Assembly: GCA_964016885.1 (NCBI GenBank)
Contig: OZ024746.1
Coordinates: 29,760,001-29,824,000 of the forward strand
Reading direction: 5' to 3'
Length of the DNA stretch: 64,000 nt
DNA from: Eledone cirrhosa
Lineage: Eukaryota
A model generated the notes under the pieces. The model was not told the origin of the DNA and did no database searches. It saw nothing but the letters and a program-made list of their open reading frames with translations. The position numbers and the translations under genes are program-made. Shown one piece after another: positions 856 to 59,225 of the stretch (positions are counted from its first letter, which is position 1; the number at the start of each line of letters is the position of its first letter).

Positions 856-1612
856 GCACTGCAGGTCCCTATGAAGTCTGGTGAGACTCCAGACTCATAG
901 GCCTCTAGATGTGGGGTAGATGTTAATCCTGTGATGGACTGGCACCCTTTCCAAGGTATAATCTTGTAATCTCGGCCAGTTTATGCCTATGAAAAGTGGA
1001 TAAGATACAACACGATGAGCCTTCGGACTTGGTATAGACTTTAACTACACGAAAGTTAAACTTGTGGCTAAAACATAAAATAATATATTGTATTATTCGG
1101 TGTACAACATGCACACCTTTATACAAATATATATATATATATATATATATATCCGTAGGTGGGAAAAGCAAAGCAGTACTCAGTCAGGTATGACACCTGA
1201 TATATTGTTATTTGTTTATGTTCATACAGAGAACAAAAGCGCCTGAAAATTAGGTCACAAATTTGATCTGTCTTACAACCTGGAGATATGGTCACACTAT
1301 TGGGCCATGAAATCTATAGGTAGCGCTTTTGTTCCGTGTATGAATATAAAACAATATATATAGTGTATCTTACTTTCGTATTAAATATCCAAAGCTGGTA
1401 GACCCCCTCAAACTGATGGACTAGTTGCCGTATACAGTTATTTATTACACAATCAGATACGGGTTGCAATCGAACTTACTCAAAACTCCTATAGATGTGG
1501 CAGAAAGCACGCCTAATATTTAAGGATTCTAAAATGGCCAGAATGATGATTTGACTATGAAAAACGTGTCTCCGGCAATCCTTATCAGTTAGTATCATAA
1601 TGTAGTTATTTC

Positions 1613-1743
<131 letters not shown>

Positions 1744-1900
1744 CATGTGTCTCTCTCTCAATATATATGTGATTAAAAAAAAAAAAAAGGGAATTATAAA
1801 TTTTCTAGTGCAAAGCATAAGCGTTGGCATGTTTTTAGACATGCCAAAAAATCAATTAAATGGTAAAATCTGTTAAGTGGTTACATCAGGGGTTATTTTA

Positions 1901-2075
1901 AAAGATCTTTTTAAGCATATATGGCAGTGTGTTCCGTTATTTATCATAGAAAGATTGAAAATGTTTAGAAGATTTACGTTGGTCAAAGATCTTTGACTAA
2001 CGTAAATCTAAACATTTTCAAATCTTTCTATGAAAATAACAAAGCCCACTGCCATATATCCTTAAAAAGATCTTT
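1901..2075. repeat. Imperfect palindrome next to (TA)n
   Basis: Axis GTCAAAGATCTTTGAC at ~1989; the arms end in AAAGATCTTTTTAAG / CTTAAAAAGATCTTT. Confidence 0.9.
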
Positions 2076-2095
2076 GTTGTGGAACTAACTTTGTG

Positions 2096-2171
<76 letters not shown>

Positions 2172-2579
2172 ATTGAAAAATATGGTAAATGAAACATGTG
2201 TATAATGTTAATTAAATTTTAATTAAAATTTAATATGTTCTATTTTATGTATATATAAATGTTTCTTTCCACCATCTGCTGACGCGTTTCCCTATATATG
2301 TTTCATTGTTACAGCTGAAACAGAAGCCATTTATTATCTTTATAATGTTAATAGTAACATTAATTCATAGAACATACGATTGTCAATCAACGTACATAAA
2401 TATGTCTAACTTGATATCATAACAGGAATTTTGTTATGTTGGCTGTCATTTCACAGTTCCAAATAGCAAGAGTCTTGTATAAATAATGCAAGCTATTTAT
2501 CAAAGAAACACAGTAGTCTGTCTATCCTATGAGATCTATTGGTGATTTGAATTTGATGCTAGAATAAATCAAATCATAA

Positions 2580-2970
2580 ACAAGCCTGAATACACGAATA
2601 ATTAAATTTGGCAAGAAAAACTGTGACTTAGTGTCTAGTGTTTGGTGATCGCGGCCCACGGCACTAAACTCTTACATACGCTGCATTGTTTTCACACTTA
2701 TTTTTCACGATTTCATTTAGGTGTGAGAATAAAACAGACAAGCCTGAAGACACTACTGCAATTAATTTTGACACGAACTATTTAACATAGCATTTAGTTG
2801 TTGGCAACCTAGGCCCACGGCACTAATTTCATTATTATTTTATGAATGATTTCATCCCTGTTTCGCACGATTTTACTTAGGTAGAAGAATAAAAAAAAAG
2901 AGAAGCCTGAATATTCTATATCGGTTAATTTTAGCAAAAAGTCTGTAACACAATTCTTAGATTTTGGCAG
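2580..2970. repeat. Diverged tandem repeat, ~160-bp unit, ~2.5 copies
   Basis: AAGCCTGAA at 2582, 2740 and 2903; GGCCCACGGCACTAA twice. Confidence 0.75.
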
Positions 2971-3708
2971 TCATTATTCTAGATCCATGTTATTAGCACT
3001 ATTTCAATCCAGACCTGCCAACCTCTAAAAACCATGAAAAACAGTGCCCCAAAACGGGGAGAAATGAGGTAAAATGGGGAGATTTTACATAATAAAAGAC
3101 AAACGAGTTTTCACAAGAGAAGATATCTCTTATCCACCCCAAAGTGGGTGGGAGATCTCCCCGTCGGACAGGGAGAGATGAGATGTCTATCAATCAATCA
3201 GATTCAAAGCATAAGGACAATATTGGTGCTTAGCTGGAAACCGAATTATTCACTGACTTTCTCGAGCATCAGTCAACCACCATATTTTTTAAGAACTTAC
3301 TTTTCGATGCTAATTAACCAGGTTCAATTAGGTCGATACTTACAGGGCTTCCTTCATACGTGACCGTAGTCAAATACAAAGTTCCTCGTCTTTCGGTAAG
3401 GAATTAACCCCTCGTTTAACCCGGAGTTTTTAAATGATACGCCAATTTTTACAATTGATAAATCTGTCGTCGTATTTGATAGCACCAATACACTTGTGCG
3501 CGCACACACACACAGAAACACACACACAGACACACACATACACACATACACACACATACACACACCAATACAAATATATTCGTGAGTTACTGACGGACGT
3601 GATAAAAAGTACTAAATGCCAAAGTAAAATTAATTAATTTATCATGGCTATACCGTGAGCTTTATTACTCTGGTGTTTCACTTGCACACTCATTGTATCA
3701 AGACAAGA

Positions 3709-3756
3709 GTTGTCTGATGATCCTGTGAGAGGAATGCAAAACTCCTGAGTAACAAC
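3709..3756 (+). ncRNA. Type-I hammerhead ribozyme, GAAA box damaged
   Basis: GTTGT-CTGATGA-TCCT gtgag AGGA-atgc AAAA-CTC ct GAG-TA-ACAAC; stems I, II and III pair. Confidence 0.65.
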
Positions 3757-3836
3757 ACTCACTGTTTAGCCTTAATAAGATTAATACTGGTGTATGGAGT
3801 ACTCTTTTCTTTCGGCCGTCAGTTACGTTCGGTATG

Positions 3837-3895
<59 letters not shown>

Positions 3896-3897
3896 AA

Positions 3898-3938
3898 CGA
3901 TGTACTAGTTTCAAGCTTATTAGCTATCGTCAGCATCG
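3898..3938 (-). ncRNA. Minimal type-I hammerhead ribozyme (family A)
   Basis: Minus strand: CGATG-CTGACGA-tAGCT aata AGCTt-GAAA-CTAG-TA-CATCG. Confidence 0.9.
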
Positions 3939-4308
3939 TATACCTTGCTGCCAGATGGTTGAACGTCTGAAAGTATATACTTTCCTTATGCATATTAACG
4001 GCTGAGCAGCCTAATTTGCATATCGAGTGAGTTCAGTCGGCCGGGCACACCAAAAACGATAAATGGAATAGAATGAAACGAAATTTCATTTCTCACTCTT
4101 AGTATGGCACTTACTTAAATGTAAGTATGTATGCATGTATACGTACATACATATATGTATACAGACGTACAGTAGTATGTATATATATATATATATACAT
4201 ACATGCACACATATATAAGTAAGTTCCGTACTAAGAGTGAGAAATGAAATTTCGTTTCATTCTATTCCATTTATCGTTTTCGGTGTGCCCGGCCGATTTT
4301 ATATATAT

Positions 4309-4680
4309 AAAATAATTAAGTCAAATATGTAAAATTTGGCTTCGTTTATTATAAATTATAGATATACTGCTGTATATATTTCGGTGACAGCCATCATTGG
4401 CTGTGACCTCTTCAGGCAGTCCGAATTGGTGTGGGAAATACAGGTACACATATGATTCCAGTTCCTCAGAGGAATAACAACACAACCAGGAGCTGGACAT
4501 ATCGATGTATTGACGGAGTAAAACACACTTCAACAACATGTGTACCTGTTTTTCCCACACCAATTCTGACTGCCTGAAGAGGTGACAGCCAATGATGGGT
4601 GTCACCGAAATATATATAGCAGTATATCTATAATGTATAATAAAGGAAGCCAAATTTTACATATTTGACTTAATTATTTT
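4309..4680. repeat. Head-to-head inverted repeat, ~145-bp arms with HHRs
   Basis: 4309-4453 is the reverse complement of 4537-4680 with a few mismatches. Confidence 0.95.
4569..4623 (+). ncRNA. Type-I hammerhead ribozyme (mirror copy 4366-4420 on minus strand)
   Basis: ACTGC-CTGAAGA-GGTGAC...GTCACC-GAAA-TATATA-TA-GCAGT. Confidence 0.9.
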
Positions 4681-4771
4681 ACATTACTCCGGAGTAAAAA
4701 AACCAACCTGCGTACTTCGTTGAGTGCTCCAATCTGCATACTGAGGTCTCGGTAAACAACCAACATATACT

Positions 4772-21781: not shown

Positions 21782-23460
21782 CTAAGTCATCCGCATAGTC
21801 AGCGTCGGTGATTTTCTGAGCTGCATGGCGTCTACACTTTCGCTTTGTGAGAGTGAAACCAAGCTCTAAGTTTTCGTCCAGGGATTTTCTCAATACTTAG
21901 TCGAGGCAGATGATAAAAATATATGGTGCAAGAGTATCCCCTTGGAGTACTCCTGCAATGATGTCAAAGAAGTTGGTATCTCCATCAGGTGAGAGCACCA
22001 TTGCGCGGGTGTTTTTATATAATATCATGATGGCATTTACTGTTTCCTTTGGCAAGCCGTAGGCTAGAAGTATCTCTCTCATCCTCCCACGATGGGTGGA
22101 ATTGACTGCTTTAGAAAAGTCAATAAACAGGTGAGCTGCTGGGAGGTTTTTGGCTTTTACGGCTTCCAAGATACGCCGAATAGTAAGTATTTGCCCTGAT
22201 GTTGATCTGTTGGTGCGGAAGCCATTTTGGTTTTTTCTCAGCAAGGGGTCAATGACAGGTCTTATTCTGTCAAGTAACATGTATATCTTTGCGGCAATTG
22301 CCATTAGTGTTACGCCACAGTAGTTTTTAGCCATTCCAAGATCGCCCTTTTTGGGAAAAGGGTGTATACATTCCTCAGTCCATTTGTCTATGGGGTCTTG
22401 ATTATAGACATCATTACACAATTCTAGTTGGATTGGGGGTAATTCAGGTACCTTCCACACTTCAGTTGGGATCTCGTCGAGGCGCACGCTTTTCCGTTAC
22501 CAATACTTTTCACTACTTTCTGTAGTTCCTCCATAGTGAAAAGCCCTTCTGTATTTGCTGTTCCTCTGTAAACACGGGTATTATTTCTTCTTCGATGATC
22601 TGTGGTGCTTTGCCAAGTAGGTTCTGAAAATGTTGTTGCCACAGTTTTAAACGTTCGTCTTGGCTGGAGGCTTTCAATTTGGCTCTGTCACTACTTTTTC
22701 TGCCACTAATTTCATTGACAGATTTCCAGGCCCCAGCATACCTCTTATTGATGACAGTACTTGAGATATGATTGATCTTTTTCTGCATGTATTCGGCTTG
22801 CTCAATTTCATACTCACTTTTCAGTGCTGTACAAGCAGCATTGAAGTTAATAATGTTTTCTGGATATCGTTGAGTGTCTTTCAATTCTGCAACTTTTCGC
22901 AACTCTTTGCGCTTTTGGCGTATGCTCTCTGTGTCCCAGGGTTTTAGTTTTTTAACCTTGGGTTTTAAAAGGATGGTGTCGGCTGTGGCCTTTTTGAATG
23001 CCATTTGAAAGTGGTTAAATGTAGAATTTGACGATTTTGTTGGCGTAGAGTCTTGTAGGGCAGCAAATCGGTTGCTCAGTTGGATTACAAAGGTTTTGTA
23101 AGTCTCAGGATTGGTATTCAGAACTGCTCAGTTGTAAGGAGTAGCATTTGCAGATTTATTTTTATCCACTCGGAGACTTAATCGTATCTTAGCCGAGACA
23201 ATGCGATGGTCCGAGTCAACACTAACAAATGAGTCATATGCTCTGCATTTTTTTTGCGCTGTTCTTCGATTTTCGATTGATTATGATATAATCCAGTTGT
23301 ATCTTGTCGCCATTTGGAGATTTGTGTGTCCACCGCTGGCCTGGTCTTTTTTGGAATATGGCGTTGAGACATCGTAAATTGTTCTCCCAGTAATCTTTTA
23401 GCATACAACCGTTACTATTGGTTTGTGAGTGGTAGAAGGGGTATTTAATTTGTTTTGAAG
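21782..23460 (-). pseudogene. RTE-clade LINE ORF2 fragment (APE endonuclease end + RT), frameshifted
   Basis: PFPKKGDL..KNYCGVTL, NQNGFRTNRST, FIDFSKA, GVLQGDTLAPYIFIICLD and TDADYADDL at the left end. QLDYIIIN/SDHRIV-like endonuclease motifs near 23200-23300. Confidence 0.92.
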
Positions 23461-23527
23461 TCCGACAAATATAAATGTTTATAACTAATTTAGAGCCCTC
23501 AACAGTTTACTGGAGTAAATATTCGAT

Positions 23528-23987
<460 letters not shown>

Positions 23988-24001
23988 TATGCATATATAT
24001 G

Positions 24002-24033
<32 letters not shown>

Positions 24034-24047
24034 TATGCATATATATG

Positions 24048-24133
<86 letters not shown>

Positions 24134-24242
24134 TAAACGGAATAGAAAATGCAGACAAATTGTTCACAGTTGAAAAATTAGGAATAAAAGAGTATTAGTG
24201 ATTGTATGGGTTAGTATTCAGTTGTGGTTTTAAGTTTTTAAG

Positions 24243-24280
24243 TTTTTACCGGTTGCGCATTTCTAAATGCTTTTCAAAAA
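24243..24280 (-). ncRNA. Hammerhead with U3-A8 core, GAAA>GCAA
   Basis: Minus strand: TTT-TTGAAAA-GCATTT ag AAATGC-GCAA-CCGG-TA-AAA. Confidence 0.6.
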
Positions 24281-24292
24281 TTTTTAGATAGA

Positions 24293-26113
24293 GTGTCCGT
24301 GTTGTTAGAAAACAACACATACTATGAAAAAACAGAAAACTACAAACACACCAAAACAATGGGGAACCTTTTGACCTTACTGAATAAATACCGCAACAGC
24401 TTAACCACAAAAGAGTTTAACTATATAAGCCACTTCAAATGCAATACAAGCTCTTTTTACGGCTTACCGAAACTCCACTAATGTAAACCCATAAACGATG
24501 CATGTGACACCTCAACCAACAATTACATTGAACTAACACCACCAGAAGACCTAAAACTCAGGCCAATTATAGCAGGCCCTACATGTGAAACCCACAGACT
24601 TAGCAACTTTCTGGACATCCTACTGAAACCCTTTCTACAACATATACAGAGCTACATACGAGATGACCTTGACATGCTGAAACACCTCCCTAAAACAGTA
24701 AGTGCAAATACAATTCTTGTCTCCTTTGACGTAATAAACCTCTACACAAACATACCCCACAACTATGGAATAACAGCAGTCCAATACTGGCTTAACACAC
24801 ACCCATCAGAAATACCGACACGCATCAACAAAGATTTTATCACTGACGGACTCCGCTTTATCCTACAAAATAACTACTTCACATTCAATGGTTCAACATA
24901 CAGACAAGTATCAGGTACGACAATGGGCACGAAAGTAGCACCCACATATGCCAACCTAGTCATGGGATTCCATGAACAACAAATATACAGTCAGTCCCTT
25001 CTCTTATTTGGAGACTCTTTCCACACACACCTCAAAGCCAATTGGAAAAGATATCTAGACGACTGCTTTATCCTATGGCAAGAAGACATGAACTCACTTA
25101 CTATGTTTAAAAACATGATAAACAACATAGATAATAACATACAATTCACAATAGAATCCAATCCCAAGGAATCAGCCTTCTTGGATATTCTCATCTCTGT
25201 AATAGACGGGAAATTAGATACAGATATATTCTATAAACCCACAGATTCCAAGCAATACCTCTTTTTCACATCAAGTCACCCAAAACATACAAAACTTAAC
25301 ATTCCTTACAATTTGGCCAAACGTATATGTACCATAGTATCAGATCCACCTAAACGGGAGCAAAGACTAAAGGAACTAAAAGACACCCTTATCTTAAGAG
25401 CCTTTCCACTTGAAATAATCAACAATGGAATAGACAGGGCAAAACACCTAAATCCCCATCAACTTAACAATCCAAAACAGAAAACCACACTCAACACCCT
25501 GCCATATGTATCCACTTTCAACCCCAGAAATACCGAAATGTTTGATCACCTACACAAAAACCTCCCCATCCTACTTAAAGATGTAAAAATGAAGTCTATT
25601 CTTGAAACACACAAGATCCTTAAAAGTAAAAGACAACCCAAATCACTAAAACGCATTCTCACTGGACCAAATATACCCAAACCAATCCTCAACCCTACAG
25701 TTACCAAATGTGGTAGAACAAACTGTGGAACGTGCCTCTACCTCACTGAAGGACAAAAATTTACATTTAAAGATGGCCAAACATTTACAGTAAAAAACAA
25801 TTTCACCTGCAACTCGGAGAACTTGATTTACGCAATAACTTGCGGTGGGTGCAAACACAACTACATAGGACAGACGGGCACCTCATTACGCAAAAGAATC
25901 ACCATCCACCGCCAACAAATCCGGGACGCTAGTACAAGAAAAATCCCCTTGAGCAGCCATATTGCGAACTGCGCAGGAATGACACTACCCAACTTTAAAA
26001 TCTTCCCCTTCTACAAGTGCTCAGATTCGTTCACACAGCAACAAAGAATAAACAAAGAAAATCTATTCCTTAACAAATTTAAACCAAAACTAAACGGGTT
26101 ATCACCCCAATAG
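24293..26113 (+). pseudogene. Penelope-like retroelement ORF (reverse transcriptase + Cys-rich linker + GIY-YIG endonuclease), 5'-truncated, one premature stop
   Basis: ORFs 24293-24481 and 24674-26113 are in the same frame, separated only by TAA at 24479-24481 (FYGLPKLH*, expected K). The intervening codons read ...LKLRPIIAGPTCETHRLSNFLDILLKPF. Motifs: SFDVINLYTNIP, GTTMGTKVAPTYANL, RYLDD, FLD..I, YKPTD, CGRTNCGTC linker, LIYAITCGGCKHNYIGQT, RITIHR (Neptune-like). Confidence 0.95.
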
Positions 26114-26504
26114 AATTGTCATAAAATATAAACACACATACGCACGGAGTGACAGATATATGTGTTTGTATGTGTGCATGTATATAATTATCACTACCAT
26201 TAAAGACCAGAGACCAATTCTGTAGAATCAGGTTTATTCGTTGACAGACCATGCCTTTGTGTGACCAACACATCCATGTTAAACCCTGCACGTGCACACA
26301 CATATATCTATATATATATGCGCACACAGAATTCACCACTGTCGGTTGCGGGGCCCAATCTACATGAAGAACTCAATGTGATCAGAATGACTTGTATTTT
26401 AATTTCACTGCCCTAACTTCTTATATTATGGAAACAATATATGTGTATGTATGTATATATATATATTTGGAGGCCATTTCTCTGTGTGTGGGTGTATGTA
26501 TGTG

Positions 26505-26546
<42 letters not shown>

Positions 26547-26731
26547 TGCATGTGGATGTATGTATTGTGTGTGTGTGTGTGTGTATGTATGTGTGTATCT
26601 GGATGTATGCGTATGTGTATATATATATATATGTGTGTGTGTGTGAATATATATGTGTGTGTATGTGTATATATGTGTGTGTGTGTGTGTGTATGTATGT
26701 GTGTATCTGGATGTATGTGTATGTATATATA

Positions 26732-26766
<35 letters not shown>

Positions 26767-26837
26767 TTGTGTGTATGTGCATATATGTGTGTGTGTATGT
26801 GTGTATGTATATGTATGTGTGTGTGTATGTATGTGTG

Positions 26838-26874
<37 letters not shown>

Positions 26875-27226
26875 ATGTATATGTATATGTATGTATGTGT
26901 GGATGAAGGTATGTGTGTATATATAGGTGTAAGTGCACTAAATCCCTTTCTATCAATCTCCCCTCTCCTACCGAGCACAGGAAGATATATGTATGTAAAT
27001 TGCTTCCACCCCCTCACTGACCAGCAGCTGGCCATCTGGCCATTGCTAAATTTGACCTTTATAAAATAACCCACACCCCCAAATAACTTCTCATTCACTA
27101 CCAGAAGCAGTCAACGAGCTGCTACCAAGATGAAAACTACTATGAAATCCCACAATGAATTTCATACTTGAATTTTCAAATCTCAAATTTTAACTCTTCT
27201 TATTATTAATTTCTCTTAATATTAAT

Positions 27227-27275
27227 CAACATTTGAAAAGATGGCTTTTGCAGACCCATCGAAACCGGTCATTTT
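27227..27275 (+). ncRNA. Hammerhead with U3-A8 core in the PLE 3' terminus
   Basis: AACAT-TTGAAAA-GATGG cttttgcagac CCATC-GAAA-CCGG-TC-ATTTT. Confidence 0.75.
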
Positions 27276-27405
27276 TTATACCCTTTATTATTTCCTTACC
27301 TTATAAAATTATATGTTTTTTCACAAAAAAGTATTCTGTCTCTTATATATTCCATGTGCCATTACCAACCTCAATTTTCTCTATAACCTTCGTTTTGTGT
27401 ACACT

Positions 27406-27457
<52 letters not shown>

Positions 27458-28506: not shown

Positions 28507-29267
28507 TCACTCGATAAACCCGCCATTGGCTTTGATGACGGCCTCAAGGCGGCCTCGGAACCGGCTACAGGCCTTCGTCACTATCCCCCGACTTAGGCCC
28601 CTAAAGGCACTTGTGATCCTGGCCTTCAGATCGTCTTTCGTATTGAAGCTAGATCTGTTGGTGTCTCGTTCCACTGCGCCGCACACAAATAAGTCGAAGG
28701 GGTTGCAGTCAGGCGAGCAGGGAGGCCAGATGTCAGGTGAAGTGTGGTCGACGAAGTTCTCTGATAGCCAGGCTTGGGTCTTTCGGCTGGTATGGCAGGG
28801 CGCTGAGTCTTGCTGCCACATGTACGGCCTACCTGCAGCTACCTGGTCGATCCAGGGCTTTACTACCTCGCTCAGAACACGGATGTAGCCTTCGGTGTTC
28901 AGCTTGAGGCCCTCAGGGTAGGAGTGAGGTGGCATAACGTCACATTGACTGTTGACCATACCTAAGACCAATGTTGTCGCTGGAAACCTTGTCTGCATGA
29001 CTCTGGGCACGTCTTTGGATGAGACACCATTCTCCTGCTGACGCTGAGAAAGTCTGAAATTTCCTTATTTGTTCTCCCTGCGCGGATTCCAAGAACTCCG
29101 TGTCTCTTCCACAAATCTGGAGGTTCAAAATTATTCATAATCAATTATTCTGAAAATAAATAATGGAAATATAGTCACTGTTTTTATGAAGACAAGAGTG
29201 ACAACGGAAATAAAAAAAATTTGCATAAAATTATCATTTGAAAATTGCGAACAAATATCGTCCTAAC

Positions 29268-52595: not shown

Positions 52596-53552
52596 TGTTC
52601 AGTTATACTGGCATGTGTTGTCAGTGATGGAAACTCTCAGTGCAGAATCTTAATTGGCCACTAAACAACTTTCATCACTATTAAACGAGTTCATTTCGGT
52701 TATGAACGAGGCGTTAACAAGAAAAGCAATAGATTTTCATTGAACATGACTTGGGAATTGAATTATGTTTGAATCAATCTAGATAAGTTCTCATATCTAA
52801 GTAAAATGTCAATGGAGGTTTACCAATTAGTTATTAAATCTTATTTTCAATAGTCACGGAAGATTATTATCAGCAGTTTTGGGAAAAGAAAGAAAGGAAA
52901 ACAAAGCAAAACCATTACTACTTAACTTAATGAAAGTGCAGAACACACACTCACATAGAAACATACAGATACATAAGTACACAGGTACACATGTACACAG
53001 TCCCACAAACAGACATATACACAAACATACATATACACAAACATACATATACGCAAACACGCGTACACAAACGTACATGTACACAAACATACATTTACAC
53101 ACTTACACAGAAACACAAAAAAAAAGAAACAAATATACAGATACACAGACACACAGATACACACTCATACATGTACACATACATACGTATCAATAAACAT
53201 AGAGACATACAAACACACAGACACACAAACACGCATATATATATATATATATACAAAGATTGAGATACAGAAATATAGAGATACACAAACAAACAAACAT
53301 AAAAAAAGACACAGAGATAGACAAGGATAACGATAAAAAACAAAAAAGACATATAGACAACTCCAAACACATGTTGATGTTGCTGTTGCTGATGCTGATG
53401 CTGATGCTGATGCTGCCTTTAGTGGCTCATCAAACCAGGAAATGTTTTTACATGCCATACCACACAGTGTGCAATTAAGATTCTCACCTGCTTGCGTCTG
53501 GTTGGCATGGCACACCTTATGGTGCCGTGTTGAGACTACTTGCATAGTGACT

Positions 53553-54775
53553 CAACCTCACCATCACTAATAACAACGACAACAATAATCTCACCATCAT
53601 CACCACCACCAACAACAACAATAGCAACAGCCTTACCATCACCAGCAACAACAATAACACCACCAGCAACAACAATACCACCATCAGCAGCAACAACAGC
53701 AACAGCCTCACCATCAATAATAACAACCACAACAACAATAATCTCACCATCACCACCACCACCAACAACAATAGCAACAACCTCACCATCACCACCACCA
53801 CCAACAACAATAGCAACAGCCTCACCATCAATAACAACAACAACAACAATAACCTCACCATAACCACCACCACCAACAACAATAGCAACAGCTTCACCAT
53901 CAATAATAACAACAACAACAACAATAATCTCACCATAACCACCACCACCAACACCAACAATAGCAACAGCCTCACCATCAATAACAACAACAACAACAAT
54001 AACCTCACCATAACCACCACCACCAACAACAATAGCAACAGCTTCACCATCAATAATAACAACCACAACAACAATAATCTCACCATAACCACCACCACCA
54101 ACAACAATAGCAACAACCTCACCATCACCACCACCAACAACAATAGCAACAGCCTCACCATCAATAACAACAACAACAACAATAACCTCACCATAACCAC
54201 CACCACCAACAACAATAGCAACAGCTTCACCATCAATAATAACAACCACAACAACAATAATCTCACCATAACCACCACCACCAACAACAATAGCAACAAC
54301 CTCACCATCAATAATAACAACAACAATAACAACAACAATAATCTCACCATCACCACCACCACCAACAACAATAGCAACAACCTCACCATCACCACCACCA
54401 ACAACAATAGCAACAGCCTCACCATCAATAATAACAACAACAACAATGACCTCACCATAACCACCACCACCAACAACAATAGCAACAGCTTCACCATCAA
54501 TAATAACAACAACAACAACAATAATCTCACCATAACCACCACCACCAACACCAACAATAGCAACAGCCTCACCATCACCAGCAACAACAACAACACCACC
54601 AGCAACAACAATAACATCATCAGCAGCAACAATAGCAACAGCCTCACCATCAATAATAACAACAACAACAACAATAACCTCACCATAACCACCACCACCA
54701 ACAATAATAGCAACAGCTTCACCACCACTAATAACAATAATAATATCCTCACCATCACGACCATCAATAATAATT
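53553..54775. repeat. Trinucleotide-derived (CAA/CAC) higher-order minisatellite
   Basis: 30-39-bp units anchored on CTCACCAT, alternating ACC-rich and AAC-rich types. Confidence 0.92.
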
Positions 54776-54857
54776 GTTTCTACTTTTGGCACAAGGCCAG
54801 CAAATAACCAGTGCATTACTGGTACTTTATTTTATCGACCCCGTAAAATAATAATAA

Positions 54858-55290
54858 CACGTTATGGGGCCGTGTTTGCCCACTTGCATAGTGACACATC
54901 TTGGTGCAGATTCCACATATAAAATCAAGATGTATGGGGTACTCAAAGGTGTTATTTGCATGAGTATGACGTCTGCTACGGTTTCGTAACTCAGCCCTTG
55001 ACATACATACATGTCCGCATTTCCCACTAGTATGAGTTTCTTTCAAACATCGTTCTGGGAGGTGAATAACATCCCCCCATATATTTAGCTGCTTGTTTCA
55101 CTTCGACATAGGTCCTCTGCTTCTTTTCAAATTCCTCAACACGGTAGCAATGAGATTTCGCTACTGGGCTCTATCGGTTGTAAGATTTTTTTCATGTTGA
55201 CTTTTTTCAAGGTGTCGTTCAGACAATCTTTCAAGCGCTTGTATGGTTTGCACCGTAAGCGTTTGCATTTCAACAATTGACCGTACAAAA
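54858..55290 (-). pseudogene. RTE/BovB-like LINE 3' fragment with C2H2-like knuckles
   Basis: ILYGQLLKCKRLRCKPYKRLKDCLNDTLKK followed by KCGHVCMSRAELRNRSRRH and ICGICTKMC. Confidence 0.7.
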
Positions 55291-55315
55291 TATATACATA
55301 TACATGTATATGAAC

Positions 55316-55380
<65 letters not shown>

Positions 55381-55413
55381 AAAGAATAGAGGTGTAACAC
55401 ACAAGTTATTATA

Positions 55414-55648
55414 TATTGGTAAACAGAAAAGAAAATGCTGACAAATTGTTCACAGTTGAAAAATGGTTTAATTAGGAATAAAAGAGTATTAGTGATGGGT
55501 TAGTATTCAGTTGTGGTTTTAGGTTTTTAAAAACTTAAAACCACAACTGAATACTAACCCATACAATCACTAATACTCTTTTATTCCTAATTAAACCATT
55601 TTTCAACTGTGAACAATTTGTCAGCATTTTCTTTTCTGTTTACCAATA
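55414..55648. repeat. Palindrome of the tail found 5' of the PLE ORF (24130-24240)
   Basis: Axis GTTTTTAAAAAC at ~55528; the arms match 24130-24240. Confidence 0.93.
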
Positions 55649-55700
55649 TATATATATATATATATATATTTGGAAAATTAAATGTTTAACTTTGAGTTCA

Positions 55701-55774
55701 CTCCTGATGAGTCCGATACTCTGGATGTATCCTGTTATTGGATGTCTAAAAATACGGACGAAACCATGGTAGAG
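55701..55774 (+). ncRNA. Type-I hammerhead, solo
   Basis: CTC-CTGATGA-GTCCG...CGGAC-GAAA-CCATGG-TA-GAG. Confidence 0.85.
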
Positions 55775-55870
55775 ATATAATTACGGTATGTACACATTTC
55801 TTCTAAGTTTGAATTTACACCTAATTGTGTATGGTTGACGGTATATTTAGTTAGTTTCTACATGTCCAGA

Positions 55871-58870
55871 GACAACAATCTCACCATCAGCAGCAACAAT
55901 AAATAAAACCACCATCTACAGCAACAACAATCTCACCATCAACAGCAACAATAAAATCACCATCTCCAGCAACAATAAATAAAACCACCATCTCCAGCAA
56001 CAACAATCTCACTATCAGCAGCAATAAAACCACCATCTCCAGCAACAACAATCTCACCATCAGCAGCAATAAAACCACCATATCCAGCAACAACAATCTC
56101 ACATCAGCAGCAATAAATCCACCATCTCCAGCAACAACAATCTCACTATCAGCAACAATAAATAAAACCACCATCTCCAGCAACAAAAATCTCACTATCA
56201 GCAGCAATAAATAAAACCAACATCACCAGCAACAACAATCTCACCAACAGCAGCAACAATAAATAAAACCACCATCTCCAGCAACAACAATCTCACCATC
56301 AGCAGCAATAAATAAAACCACCATGTCCAGCAACAACAATCTCACTATCAGCAGCAACAATAAATAAAACCACCATCTACAGCAACAACAATCTCACCAA
56401 CAGCAACAATAAAACCACCATCTCCAGCAACAACAATCTCACCATCAGCAGCAATAAATAAAACCACCATCTCCAGCAATAAGAATCTCATCAACAGCAG
56501 CAATAAAACCACCATCTCCAGCAACAACAATCTCACATCAGCAGCAATAAAACCACCATCTCCAGCAACAACACTCTCAACATTAGCAACAATAAATAAA
56601 ACCACCATCTCCAGCCACAACAATCTCACTATCAGCAGCAATAAAACCACCATCTCCAGCAACAACAATCTCAACATCAGCAGCAATAAATAAAACCACC
56701 ATCACCAGCAACAACAATCTCACCAACAGCAGCAACAATAAATAAAACCACCATCTCCAGCAACAACAATCTCACCATCAGCAACAATAAATAAAACCAC
56801 CATCTCCAGCAACAACAATCTCACCATCAGCAACAATAAATAAAACCACCATCACCAGCAACAACAATCTCAACATCAGCAACAATAAATAAAACCACCA
56901 TCTCCAGCAACAACAATCTCACCATCAGCAACAATAAATAAAACCACCATCTCCAGCAACAACAATCTCACCATCAGCAACAATAAATAAAACCACCATC
57001 ACCAGCAACAACAATCTCACCATCAGCAACAATAAATAAAACCACCATCTCCAGCAACAACAATCTCACTATCAGCAGCAATAAAACCACCATCTCCAGC
57101 AACAACAATCTCAACATCAGCAACAATAAATAAAACCACCATCTCCAGCAACAACAATCTCACTATCAGCAGCAATAAAACCACCATCTCCAGCAACAAC
57201 AATCTCACCATCAGCAACAATAAATAAAACCACCATCTCCAGCAACAACAATCTCACTATCAGCAGCAATAAAACCACCATCTCCAGCAACAACAATCTC
57301 ACCATCAGCAACAATAAATAAAACCACCATCTCCAGCAACAACAATCTCACCATCAGCAACAATAAATAAAACCACCATCTCCAGCAACAACAATCTCAC
57401 CATCAGCAGCAATAAATAAAACCACCATCACCAGCAACAACAATCTCACCAACAGCTGCAACAATAAATAAAACCACCATCTCCAGCAACAACAATCTCA
57501 CCATCAGCAGCAACAATAAATAAAACCACCATCTACAGCAACAACAATCTCACCATCAACAGCAACAATAAAACCACCATCTCCAGCAATAACAATCTCA
57601 CCATCAGCAGCAATAAAACCACCATCTCCAGCAACAACAATCTCACATCAGCAACAACAATAAATAAAACCACCATCTCCAGCAATAACAATCTCACCAG
57701 CAGCAGCAATAAAACCATCATCTCCAGCAACAACAATCTCACATCAGCAACAACAATAAATAAAACCACCATCTCCAGCAATAACAATCTCACCAGCAGC
57801 AGCAATAAAACCATCATCTCCAGCAACAACAATCTCACCATCAGCAGCAATAAAACCACCATCTCCAGCAACAAAATCTCACCAACAGCAACAATAAATA
57901 AAACCACCATCTCCAGCAATAACAATCTCACCTGCAGCAGCAATAAAACCATCATCTCCAGCAACAACAATCTCACCATCAGCAGCAATAAAACCACCAT
58001 CTCCAGCAACAACAATCTCACCATCAGCAACAATAAATAAAACCACCATCTCCAGCAATAACAATCTCACCAGCAGCAGCAATAAAACCATCATCTCCAG
58101 CAATAACAATCTCACCAGCAGCAGCAATAAAACCACCATCTCCAGCAACAACAATCTCACCAGCAGCAGCAATAAAACCATCATCTCCAGCAATAACAAT
58201 CTCAACATCAGCAGCAATAAAACCACCATCTCCAGCAACAACAATCTCACATCAGCAGCAACAATAAATAAAACCACCATCTCCAGCAACAACAATCTCA
58301 CCAGCAGCAGCAATAAAACCATCATCTCCAGCAATAACAATCTCAACATCAGCAGCAATAAAACCACCATCTCCAGCAACAACAATCTCACATCAGCAGC
58401 AACAATAAATAAAACCACCATCTCCAGCAACAACAATCTCACCAGCAGCAGAAATAAAACCACCATCTCCAGCAACAACAATCTCACATCAGCAGCAACA
58501 ATAAATAAAACCACCATCTCCAGCAATAACAATCTCAACATCAGCAGCAATAAAACCACCATCTCCAGCAACAACAATCTCACATCAGCAGCAGCAATAA
58601 AACCACCATCTCCAGCAACAACAATCTCACCAACAGCAACAATAAAACCACCATCTCCAGCAACAACAATCTCACATCAGCAGCAACAATAAATAAAACC
58701 ACCATCTCCAGCAATAACAATCTCAACATCAGCAGCAATAAAACCACCATCTCCAGCAACAACAATCTCACCTTCAGCAGCAATAAAACCATCATCTCCA
58801 GCAACAACAATCTCACCTTCAGCAGCAATAAAACCATCATCTCCAGCAACAACAATCTCACCATCAGTAA
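55871..58870. repeat. Minisatellite, ~42-50-bp unit, ~65 copies
   Basis: AAT(AAAT)AAAACCACCATCTCCAGCAACAACAATCTCACCATCAGCAGC repeated. Confidence 0.95.
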
Positions 58871-59225
58871 CTATAACAATCACAATCACAACAACCCTCT
58901 AAGTAAACCGTTGTTGATATGCTATAGAGGTTTGAATGCCTCATCCATTCATAGAAATATACTGAGTTTAGAGAATACAGATCACAGATCACACATTTCT
59001 CTCGCTTTATCCTACTATTGAAACATTTTTTAAAACCTCTCTCTTCTTAACATTTTCCTTCAGAGACGAACAATAGCTGCAATTTATGCATTGCTTGTTG
59101 GAAGGCATTCTTCTACTCTTTTAACTGGCGTCTTTGTAGACCATTCAAATCAGCTGGATAATTGATTTCCAAATGTGTATATGCATTCTTTCTTATATAT
59201 TTTCTTCTCTCTGTGTCTCTTTCAG

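Follow-up and report, generated by a model that had tools for sequence, protein, structure and literature searches.

Two U3-A8 hammerhead motifs and a probable chimeric Penelope-like element in Eledone cirrhosa

Cervera and De la Pena (2014) described about 1,300 hammerhead motifs with a U3-A8 pair in Schistosoma, found through its Penelope-like elements (PLEs). These include motifs in the S. mansoni Cercyon elements, and the UUGAAAA core itself is listed, as S. mansoni(4), in their Fig. S3 (PMC4209133). The same work describes minimal PLE hammerheads as acting as dimers with low activity. Perreault et al. (2011) reported natural U3-A8 hammerheads in which the 3–8 pair is kept, stated that they are active in vitro, and described natural core variants with low but real activity (PMC3088659). 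In a comprehensive mutagenesis study, by comparison, only the G3-C8 swap rescued activity in the 3–8 region (PMC9901934). Residue A13 is part of the hammerhead core consensus (PMC7151607), and no natural A13C hammerhead was found in the open-access literature. In the anole PLE, cleavage by the hammerhead needs protein, yet hammerhead mutants insert normally in vitro; both target strands are extended, and the hammerhead lies ~111–118 nt before the reverse transcriptase (RT) start site (PMC11167929).

The window analysed here is a 64,000-nt stretch of animal DNA that is AT-rich and dense in (TA)n and (CA)n tracts, and a repeat search of it was dominated by microsatellites. A relaxed scan of both strands returned motif R (27233, +), motif L (24277, −) and canonical motifs at 4574 and 55704. 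The initial annotation had placed a TTGAAAA core and a CCGG stem III in both R and L; both features are present, and the stem is part of an ACCGGT palindrome in each motif. Its statement that U3-A8 preserves the 3–8 pair agrees with the natural examples in PMC3088659 and PMC4209133, and canonical-core searches do miss such cores, as the descriptors discussed in PMC4209133 did. The variant is not new, having already been published for PLE hammerheads. What remains new is a C13 core fixed in the repeat family to which motif L belongs. The locus as a whole is probably a chimera, in which a 5′-truncated PLE of Neptune/Nematis type, likely ending in R, is fused to the inverted 3′ end of the L repeat, with both motifs of the U3-A8 subtype (Table 1).

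Table 1. Features of the locus, in window coordinates.
Feature	Coordinates	Strand	Details
L-family 3′ tail	24131..24243	−	~115 nt, running into a (TA)n tract at ~23866–24130; two further copies at 55416–55646
Motif L, minimal type I hammerhead-like	24244..24280	−	U3-A8, C13 (GCAA), A17, palindromic helix III, 3-bp A-U stem I
L-family upstream part, in a minority of copies	24281..24306	−	Depth drop; loose ends at 24281 and 24306
Head-to-head junction of L and ORF families	24305..24306		2-nt TT microhomology
5′-truncated PLE ORF	24305..26113	+	RT, CX4CX2C linker, GIY-YIG with CCHH
Presumed 3′ untranslated region	26114..27227	+	Includes TG/TA microsatellite at ~26420–26930
Motif R, minimal type I hammerhead motif	27228..27275	+	U3-A8, intact GAAA, C17, palindromic helix III
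3′ tail of motif R	27276..27409	+	~135 nt, ends in (TA)n(GA)n

Motif R has its core at 27233–27239 (+), a 5-bp stem II that is closed by G10.1-C11.1 and carries an 11-nt loop, and GAAA at 27261–27264, followed by the palindrome and C17 at 27270. Stem I has 5 bp with a central C-U mismatch, and cleavage is predicted after 27270 (27270/27271). Two features of a minimal type I PLE hammerhead, a Watson–Crick 3–8 pair (U3-A8) and G12-A13-A14-A15.1, are found in it. In motif L, the core occupies 24277–24271 (−), A17 lies at 24247, and the predicted cut falls between 24247 and 24246. Its stem II comprises 5 bp and a 4-nt loop, a sixth pair being possible only with a 2-nt loop, and has the same G10.1-C11.1 closing pair. 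Here GCAA replaces GAAA (A13C), so that G12-A13-A14-A15.1 is absent, and motif L is therefore filed as hammerhead-like and not as a member of the consensus. The palindrome is followed by H17 in both motifs (C in R, A in L), and the homoduplex energy of ACCGGU is −8.3 kcal/mol.

Both motifs resemble the S. mansoni U3-A8 hammerheads of PMC4209133, which are likewise of type I, with UUGAAAA, G10.1-C11.1, a short palindromic helix III and a short helix I; the Schistosoma elements also carry the motif near the PLE 3′ end and in pairs on opposite strands. R and L differ from the published set in lacking a bulged nucleotide between A9 and G10.1, which is also missing in a few published entries, and in a palindrome of 6 nt where published PLE hammerheads commonly have 4 nt. 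The covarying 3–8 pair is shared with the natural hammerheads of Perreault et al. The GCAA of motif L is more unusual: the legible column of Fig. S3 in PMC4209133 holds only GAAA and one AGAAA, and the section of PMC3088659 on core variants names A6C, A6a, U13a and U15.1-A16.1 but no A13C.

The reading frame 24482–26113 (+) gives Pfam matches to RVT_1 and GIY-YIG, and it extends upstream to 24305 through one in-frame stop (24479–24481) that is private to the copy in the window and missing from the aligned relatives. The ORF lacks ~150 N-terminal residues and is 58–59% identical to full-length relatives from residue 148/164 onward. The named relatives among the best 120 of 517 matches are bivalve proteins and mollusc-symbiont bins (45–51% identity). 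The copy is young, with up to 0.77 of its words present in one run. RT is followed by a Cys linker and then by GIY-YIG with CCHH, and the ORF is typed by its sequence as a Neptune/Nematis-type EN+ element because the linker is the one given for Neptune and Nematis PLEs by Craig et al. (2021; PMC8557442). The Neptune/Nematis-type EN+ PLEs in that work, described with inverted and 5′-truncated copies, share with the window a C-terminal GIY-YIG, a CX2-5CxxC linker, (TA)n targets and an inverted 5′-adjacent copy. The Poseidon element PAc of Anolis (PMC11167929) is similar in its AT-rich targets and its hammerhead-to-end distance (~111–118 nt, against ~115 nt for the L tail), but it is C3-G8 and of the Poseidon clade, whereas the window ORF has the Cys linker of Neptune/Nematis type.

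The motifs had been annotated as cores at both ends of one PLE, which holds for their position but not for their origin, as L comes from another repeat family. Contigs of the L family reach 24306 and then continue with other sequence; contigs of the ORF family begin at 24305 and have a different upstream sequence that stays in frame. No listed contig spans 24305–24306, which shows only that the junction is rare or filtered. Summed read depths, which are not copy numbers, were ~880,000–940,000 over L and 1,600–4,400 over the ORF in run X5 (about 200- to 580-fold), 527–590 and 14–84 in X1, and ~2,100–2,270 and 0.4–103 in X18, whereas in X6 the ratio was reversed (759–978 over L and 8,100–60,900 over the ORF). 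This reversal indicates two independently varying families. Motif L is the end of a separate, far more deeply covered repeat, and not of the ORF's PLE. The possibility that motif L is an inverted copy of R's own end was rejected, since the tails show no detectable relationship (they align locally with a score of 57, where shuffled sequence averages 58.5) and their coverage differs.

A rival account that is possible, though doubtful, takes the parts to be separate insertions piled up in one TA-rich target, with R derived from a third element and not from the ORF's. PLEs tend to insert beside earlier PLE copies (PMC6765202), another inverted hammerhead pair (23540–23860) lies across the same (TA)n tract, and a long distance, interrupted by a microsatellite, separates the ORF from R. 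In the related locus L069, a foreign hammerhead end also lies inverted ~380 nt upstream of a PLE. For L alone, this account is opposed by the direct fusion of L and ORF, both 5′-truncated, at a microhomology and with their 3′ ends outward. Furthermore, no displaced continuation of the L or the ORF family was detected beyond chance in the window, which also argues against a simple nested insertion. For R, the tie to the ORF is looser. We infer across the ~500-nt microsatellite that motif R belongs to the ORF's PLE, and a C-over-G skew like that of the ORF is seen on both sides of the microsatellite. PLE hammerheads sit in the pseudo-LTR or at the element's 3′ end, and R is in sense orientation 3′ of the ORF. 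The stop codon is 1,120 nt upstream of motif R, whereas the corresponding distance is roughly 150–190 nt in the related loci L006 and L082. R might instead have decayed in this copy alone, or belong to a third element.

Inverted upstream copies are also present among the loci around related ORFs. In L048, L064 and L086 they come from the element's own family, unlike the inverted piece in the window, and in L069 from another. In the last case (L069:2722–3304), a 3′ end from the L057 family, inverted and carrying a hammerhead, lies upstream of an L064-family PLE, a looser parallel to the cross-family arrangement at 24305–24306.

The L family was examined in reads and contigs of four runs (X1, X5, X6 and X18), aligned to 24131–24580 at 80% likeness and with a 10% threshold for variants. 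Part of 24180–26420 is contained in 14 of the 20 listed runs, none of which is recorded as RNA. The tail is deeply covered, over at least part of its length, in all four runs. Across the motif L region (24225–24281), no substitution reached 10% among the variants listed for the four runs, and X18 supplied 2,149–2,344 raw reads per listed place in and beside the motif. Versions of motif L with C3, G8 or A13 stayed below 10% among the aligned reads. Correspondingly, T3 and A8 are fixed together in the L family, the four-run consensus is not CTGANGA, and the copy in the window is not decayed at these positions; for this family, the check proposed with the annotation came out as expected. C13 and A17 are as fixed as U3-A8, in runs from three organism labels. 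Within the motif only one change is common, the loss of a single loop nucleotide at 24265/24266, which keeps the five stem II pairs and accounts for 23% of depth in X5, 51% in X6 and 29% in X18. Four substitutions at 10% or more occur in the tail (24176–24246). With variable places numbering 0 of 34 in the motif and 4 of 71 in the tail, a difference that is not significant (Fisher p = 0.30), the invariance of the motif gives only a hint of constraint.

The typical L copy seems to be a short unit made up of the motif and its tail. Beyond 24281, the majority of X18 reads diverge into dissimilar flanking sequence after a few nucleotides (1,075 loose ends, with an agreement of 0.42), and an indel private to the window's copy at 24278 blurs the exact boundary of the unit. 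Six opposite-strand joints in X18 raw reads all end at 24306, with partners that differ (24221–24279). They may mark an inversion boundary that recurs in the L family, or they may be artefacts of alignment at the point where window and family sequence part.

Two further L tails, at 55416–55646, are 86–91% identical but non-identical and stand back to back at ~55528; they are followed by a short (TA)n and, within 55416–55780, by the canonical hammerhead at 55704, which has a long stem II. The idea that these tails start at the L cut site, as a cleavage footprint would, is not supported. Most aligned reads have an 8–9-nt duplication at that point, although it is missing from ~30% of X18 reads; a T/A palindrome lies where the arms join; and none of the four runs has a depth step at the predicted L cut site (24246).

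The annotation had reasoned that the same double change in two unrelated stem contexts suggests function. This argument does not carry over to the L family, because every copy inherits the letters of its master, so that fixation shows inheritance and not cleavage, and the family fixes A13C as well. Nor do the contexts appear independent: R and L are identical from the core to G10.1 and share 9 of 10 letters from C11.1 to U16.1, which makes one ancestral U3-A8 change, rather than two, plausible. Motif L is most likely a weak or dead ribozyme, as judged from its sequence, and the family-wide A13C probably cripples it.

The opposite reading is that L represents an abundant group of short repeats derived from PLEs, in which the hammerhead remains able to cleave, either as a dimer or assisted by protein, with a core that has three coupled changes (U3-A8, C13 and A17). 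A13 and C17 are the partners of a putative contact in the hammerhead core, and C13 and A17 would swap them. This reading is unlikely, although several observations agree with it. C13 and A17 are family-wide across the three organism labels, the only common change spares stem II, residues G5, G12 and A14, the G10.1-C11.1 pair and the palindrome are intact, and the predicted ensemble contains stem II at a mean pair probability of 0.58. Descriptors built on GAAA, moreover, could not have found motif L. On the other side stand the place of A13 in the core consensus, a stem I of only three A-U pairs (pair probability 0.01), the level read depth at the cut site and the scan of related loci, where no GCAA motif with a Watson–Crick 3–8 pair occurs among the 97 loci; the 13–17 contact on which the swap depends is itself putative. 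Exact motif-L patterns had no match in the genome-contig or viral-contig collections searched, and no parent element of L turned up there or among the contigs of the four runs. The 120 stretches that a generic pattern picked up in prokaryote genomes are apparently chance matches.

Motif R, for its part, might be a decayed single copy of an ordinary C3-G8 family, produced by the common C-to-T and G-to-A transitions in an AT-rich genome. The scan of 97 related loci (415,500 bases), among which few close relatives have enough 3′ flank, found 24 C3-G8 and 2 U3-A8 motifs with GAAA, several of the 24 coming repeatedly from a single family or contig; over five rounds, shuffled sequence yielded 0.2 C3-G8 matches per round. 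This predominance of C3-G8 is compatible with decay, as are the C3-G8 motifs of the close relatives L006 and L082, the C3-G8 pairs of the other hammerheads in the window, the stem I mismatch and a lowest-energy fold in which the core is buried and stem II has a pair probability of 0.01. Against decay, only the paired positions 3 and 8 differ among the core letters of R, and these are one of six possible pairs among the four G/C letters of the core. The ORF copy is young, and the same core is family-wide in L and lies 3′ of a related ORF in the more distant L017. Decay of R is an unlikely explanation.

The weight of the predicted folds is limited. The canonical motif at 4574 forms both stems (probabilities 1.0 and 0.77), whereas helix I, which spans about 2–6 bp in minimal PLE hammerheads, is predicted to form as a monomer in neither R nor L. 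Since weak monomer folds are expected for dimeric hammerheads, these predictions are mild evidence. Rfam at gathering score gave no match in the window, and its silence is uninformative because the canonical hammerheads were missed as well. A covariance model built from 15 C3-G8 matches in the related loci detected neither motif, but since the canonical motifs at 4574 and 55704 escaped it as well, it is no test of R or L.

Motifs R and L are real, beyond chance. A stricter descriptor gave no match with GAAA in 200 dinucleotide shuffles of the window, from which perfect dinucleotide runs had been removed, and one match in another 200 shuffles with position 13 left free. That R and L are chance look-alikes in AT-rich DNA is very improbable: the descriptor was written after the motifs had been seen, both stems I are weak and Rfam is silent, but the shuffles count against it, as does the spacing of both motifs from a tail that ends in (TA)n, which is the spacing expected, and the Rfam result means nothing where canonical hammerheads are lost too.

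Several further features of the window were noted. The stem II of motif R contains an ATG whose frame (27241–27306) closes after 21 codons and has, read by eye, only a faint likeness to the N-termini of PLE relatives; in the anole PLE, the ORF start likewise lies in stem II. A hairpin at 27018–27055 (z = −2.35), between CTGACCA and TAAA and 200 nt upstream of motif R, is a candidate worn hammerhead. The inverted repeat at 23540–23860 (~320 nt) adjoins the (TA)n tract of the L tail on its far side; both arms carry a hammerhead-like motif with a canonical core and a long stem II (CTGATGA at 23774, +; its mirror near 23623, −) and the palindrome ATATATAT. Within 4305–4684, the C3-G8 hammerhead at 4574 (+) has a stem II of 7 bp and a stem I of 5 bp, and an inverted partial copy with a changed core lies at 4305–4451. 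The interval 53500–58900 is taken up by long arrays, with repeat units of 9 nt and ~49 nt and a strong strand skew. By eye, and from their motifs, 21897–23506 (−) looks like a LINE endonuclease/RT fragment and 28507–29064 (−) like a fragment of a mariner-type transposase.

The chimera that we favour most likely arose at a single nick site. R and L would both be minimal hammerheads of the published U3-A8 subtype, ~115–135 nt from the 3′ end of PLEs. The PLE protein would nick a (TA)n tract, two different RNAs would be primed at the two strands of that one nick site, and the two truncated cDNAs would then join head-to-head at TT, a microhomology of 2 nt. In an intact tandem parent, R-type motifs may cleave slowly as dimers, to judge from published PLE hammerheads, with two ACCGGU palindromes forming one intermolecular helix III, possibly assisted by the PLE protein. 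At the window locus, R and L point outward on opposite strands. Each would be the only motif on its transcript, with no partner in cis, and both are probably inert. Motif L may have spread with its abundant short repeat as a relic, insertion needing no cleavage.

If motif L does cleave, nature would offer an exception to the otherwise invariant A13, and one that searches built on GAAA cannot see; a large class of genomic ribozymes would have gone unseen, and the hammerhead core consensus would need widening. If it is dead, the abundance of its family agrees with the in vitro result that PLEs can insert without hammerhead cleavage. The locus also indicates that a PLE insertion can take its inverted 5′ piece from another family, a point relevant to the origin of such inverted structures. 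The U3-A8 pair here extends a published variant to a further host lineage and is of minor importance; the more useful results are the fixed C13 in a heavily amplified family and the cross-family inverted junction.
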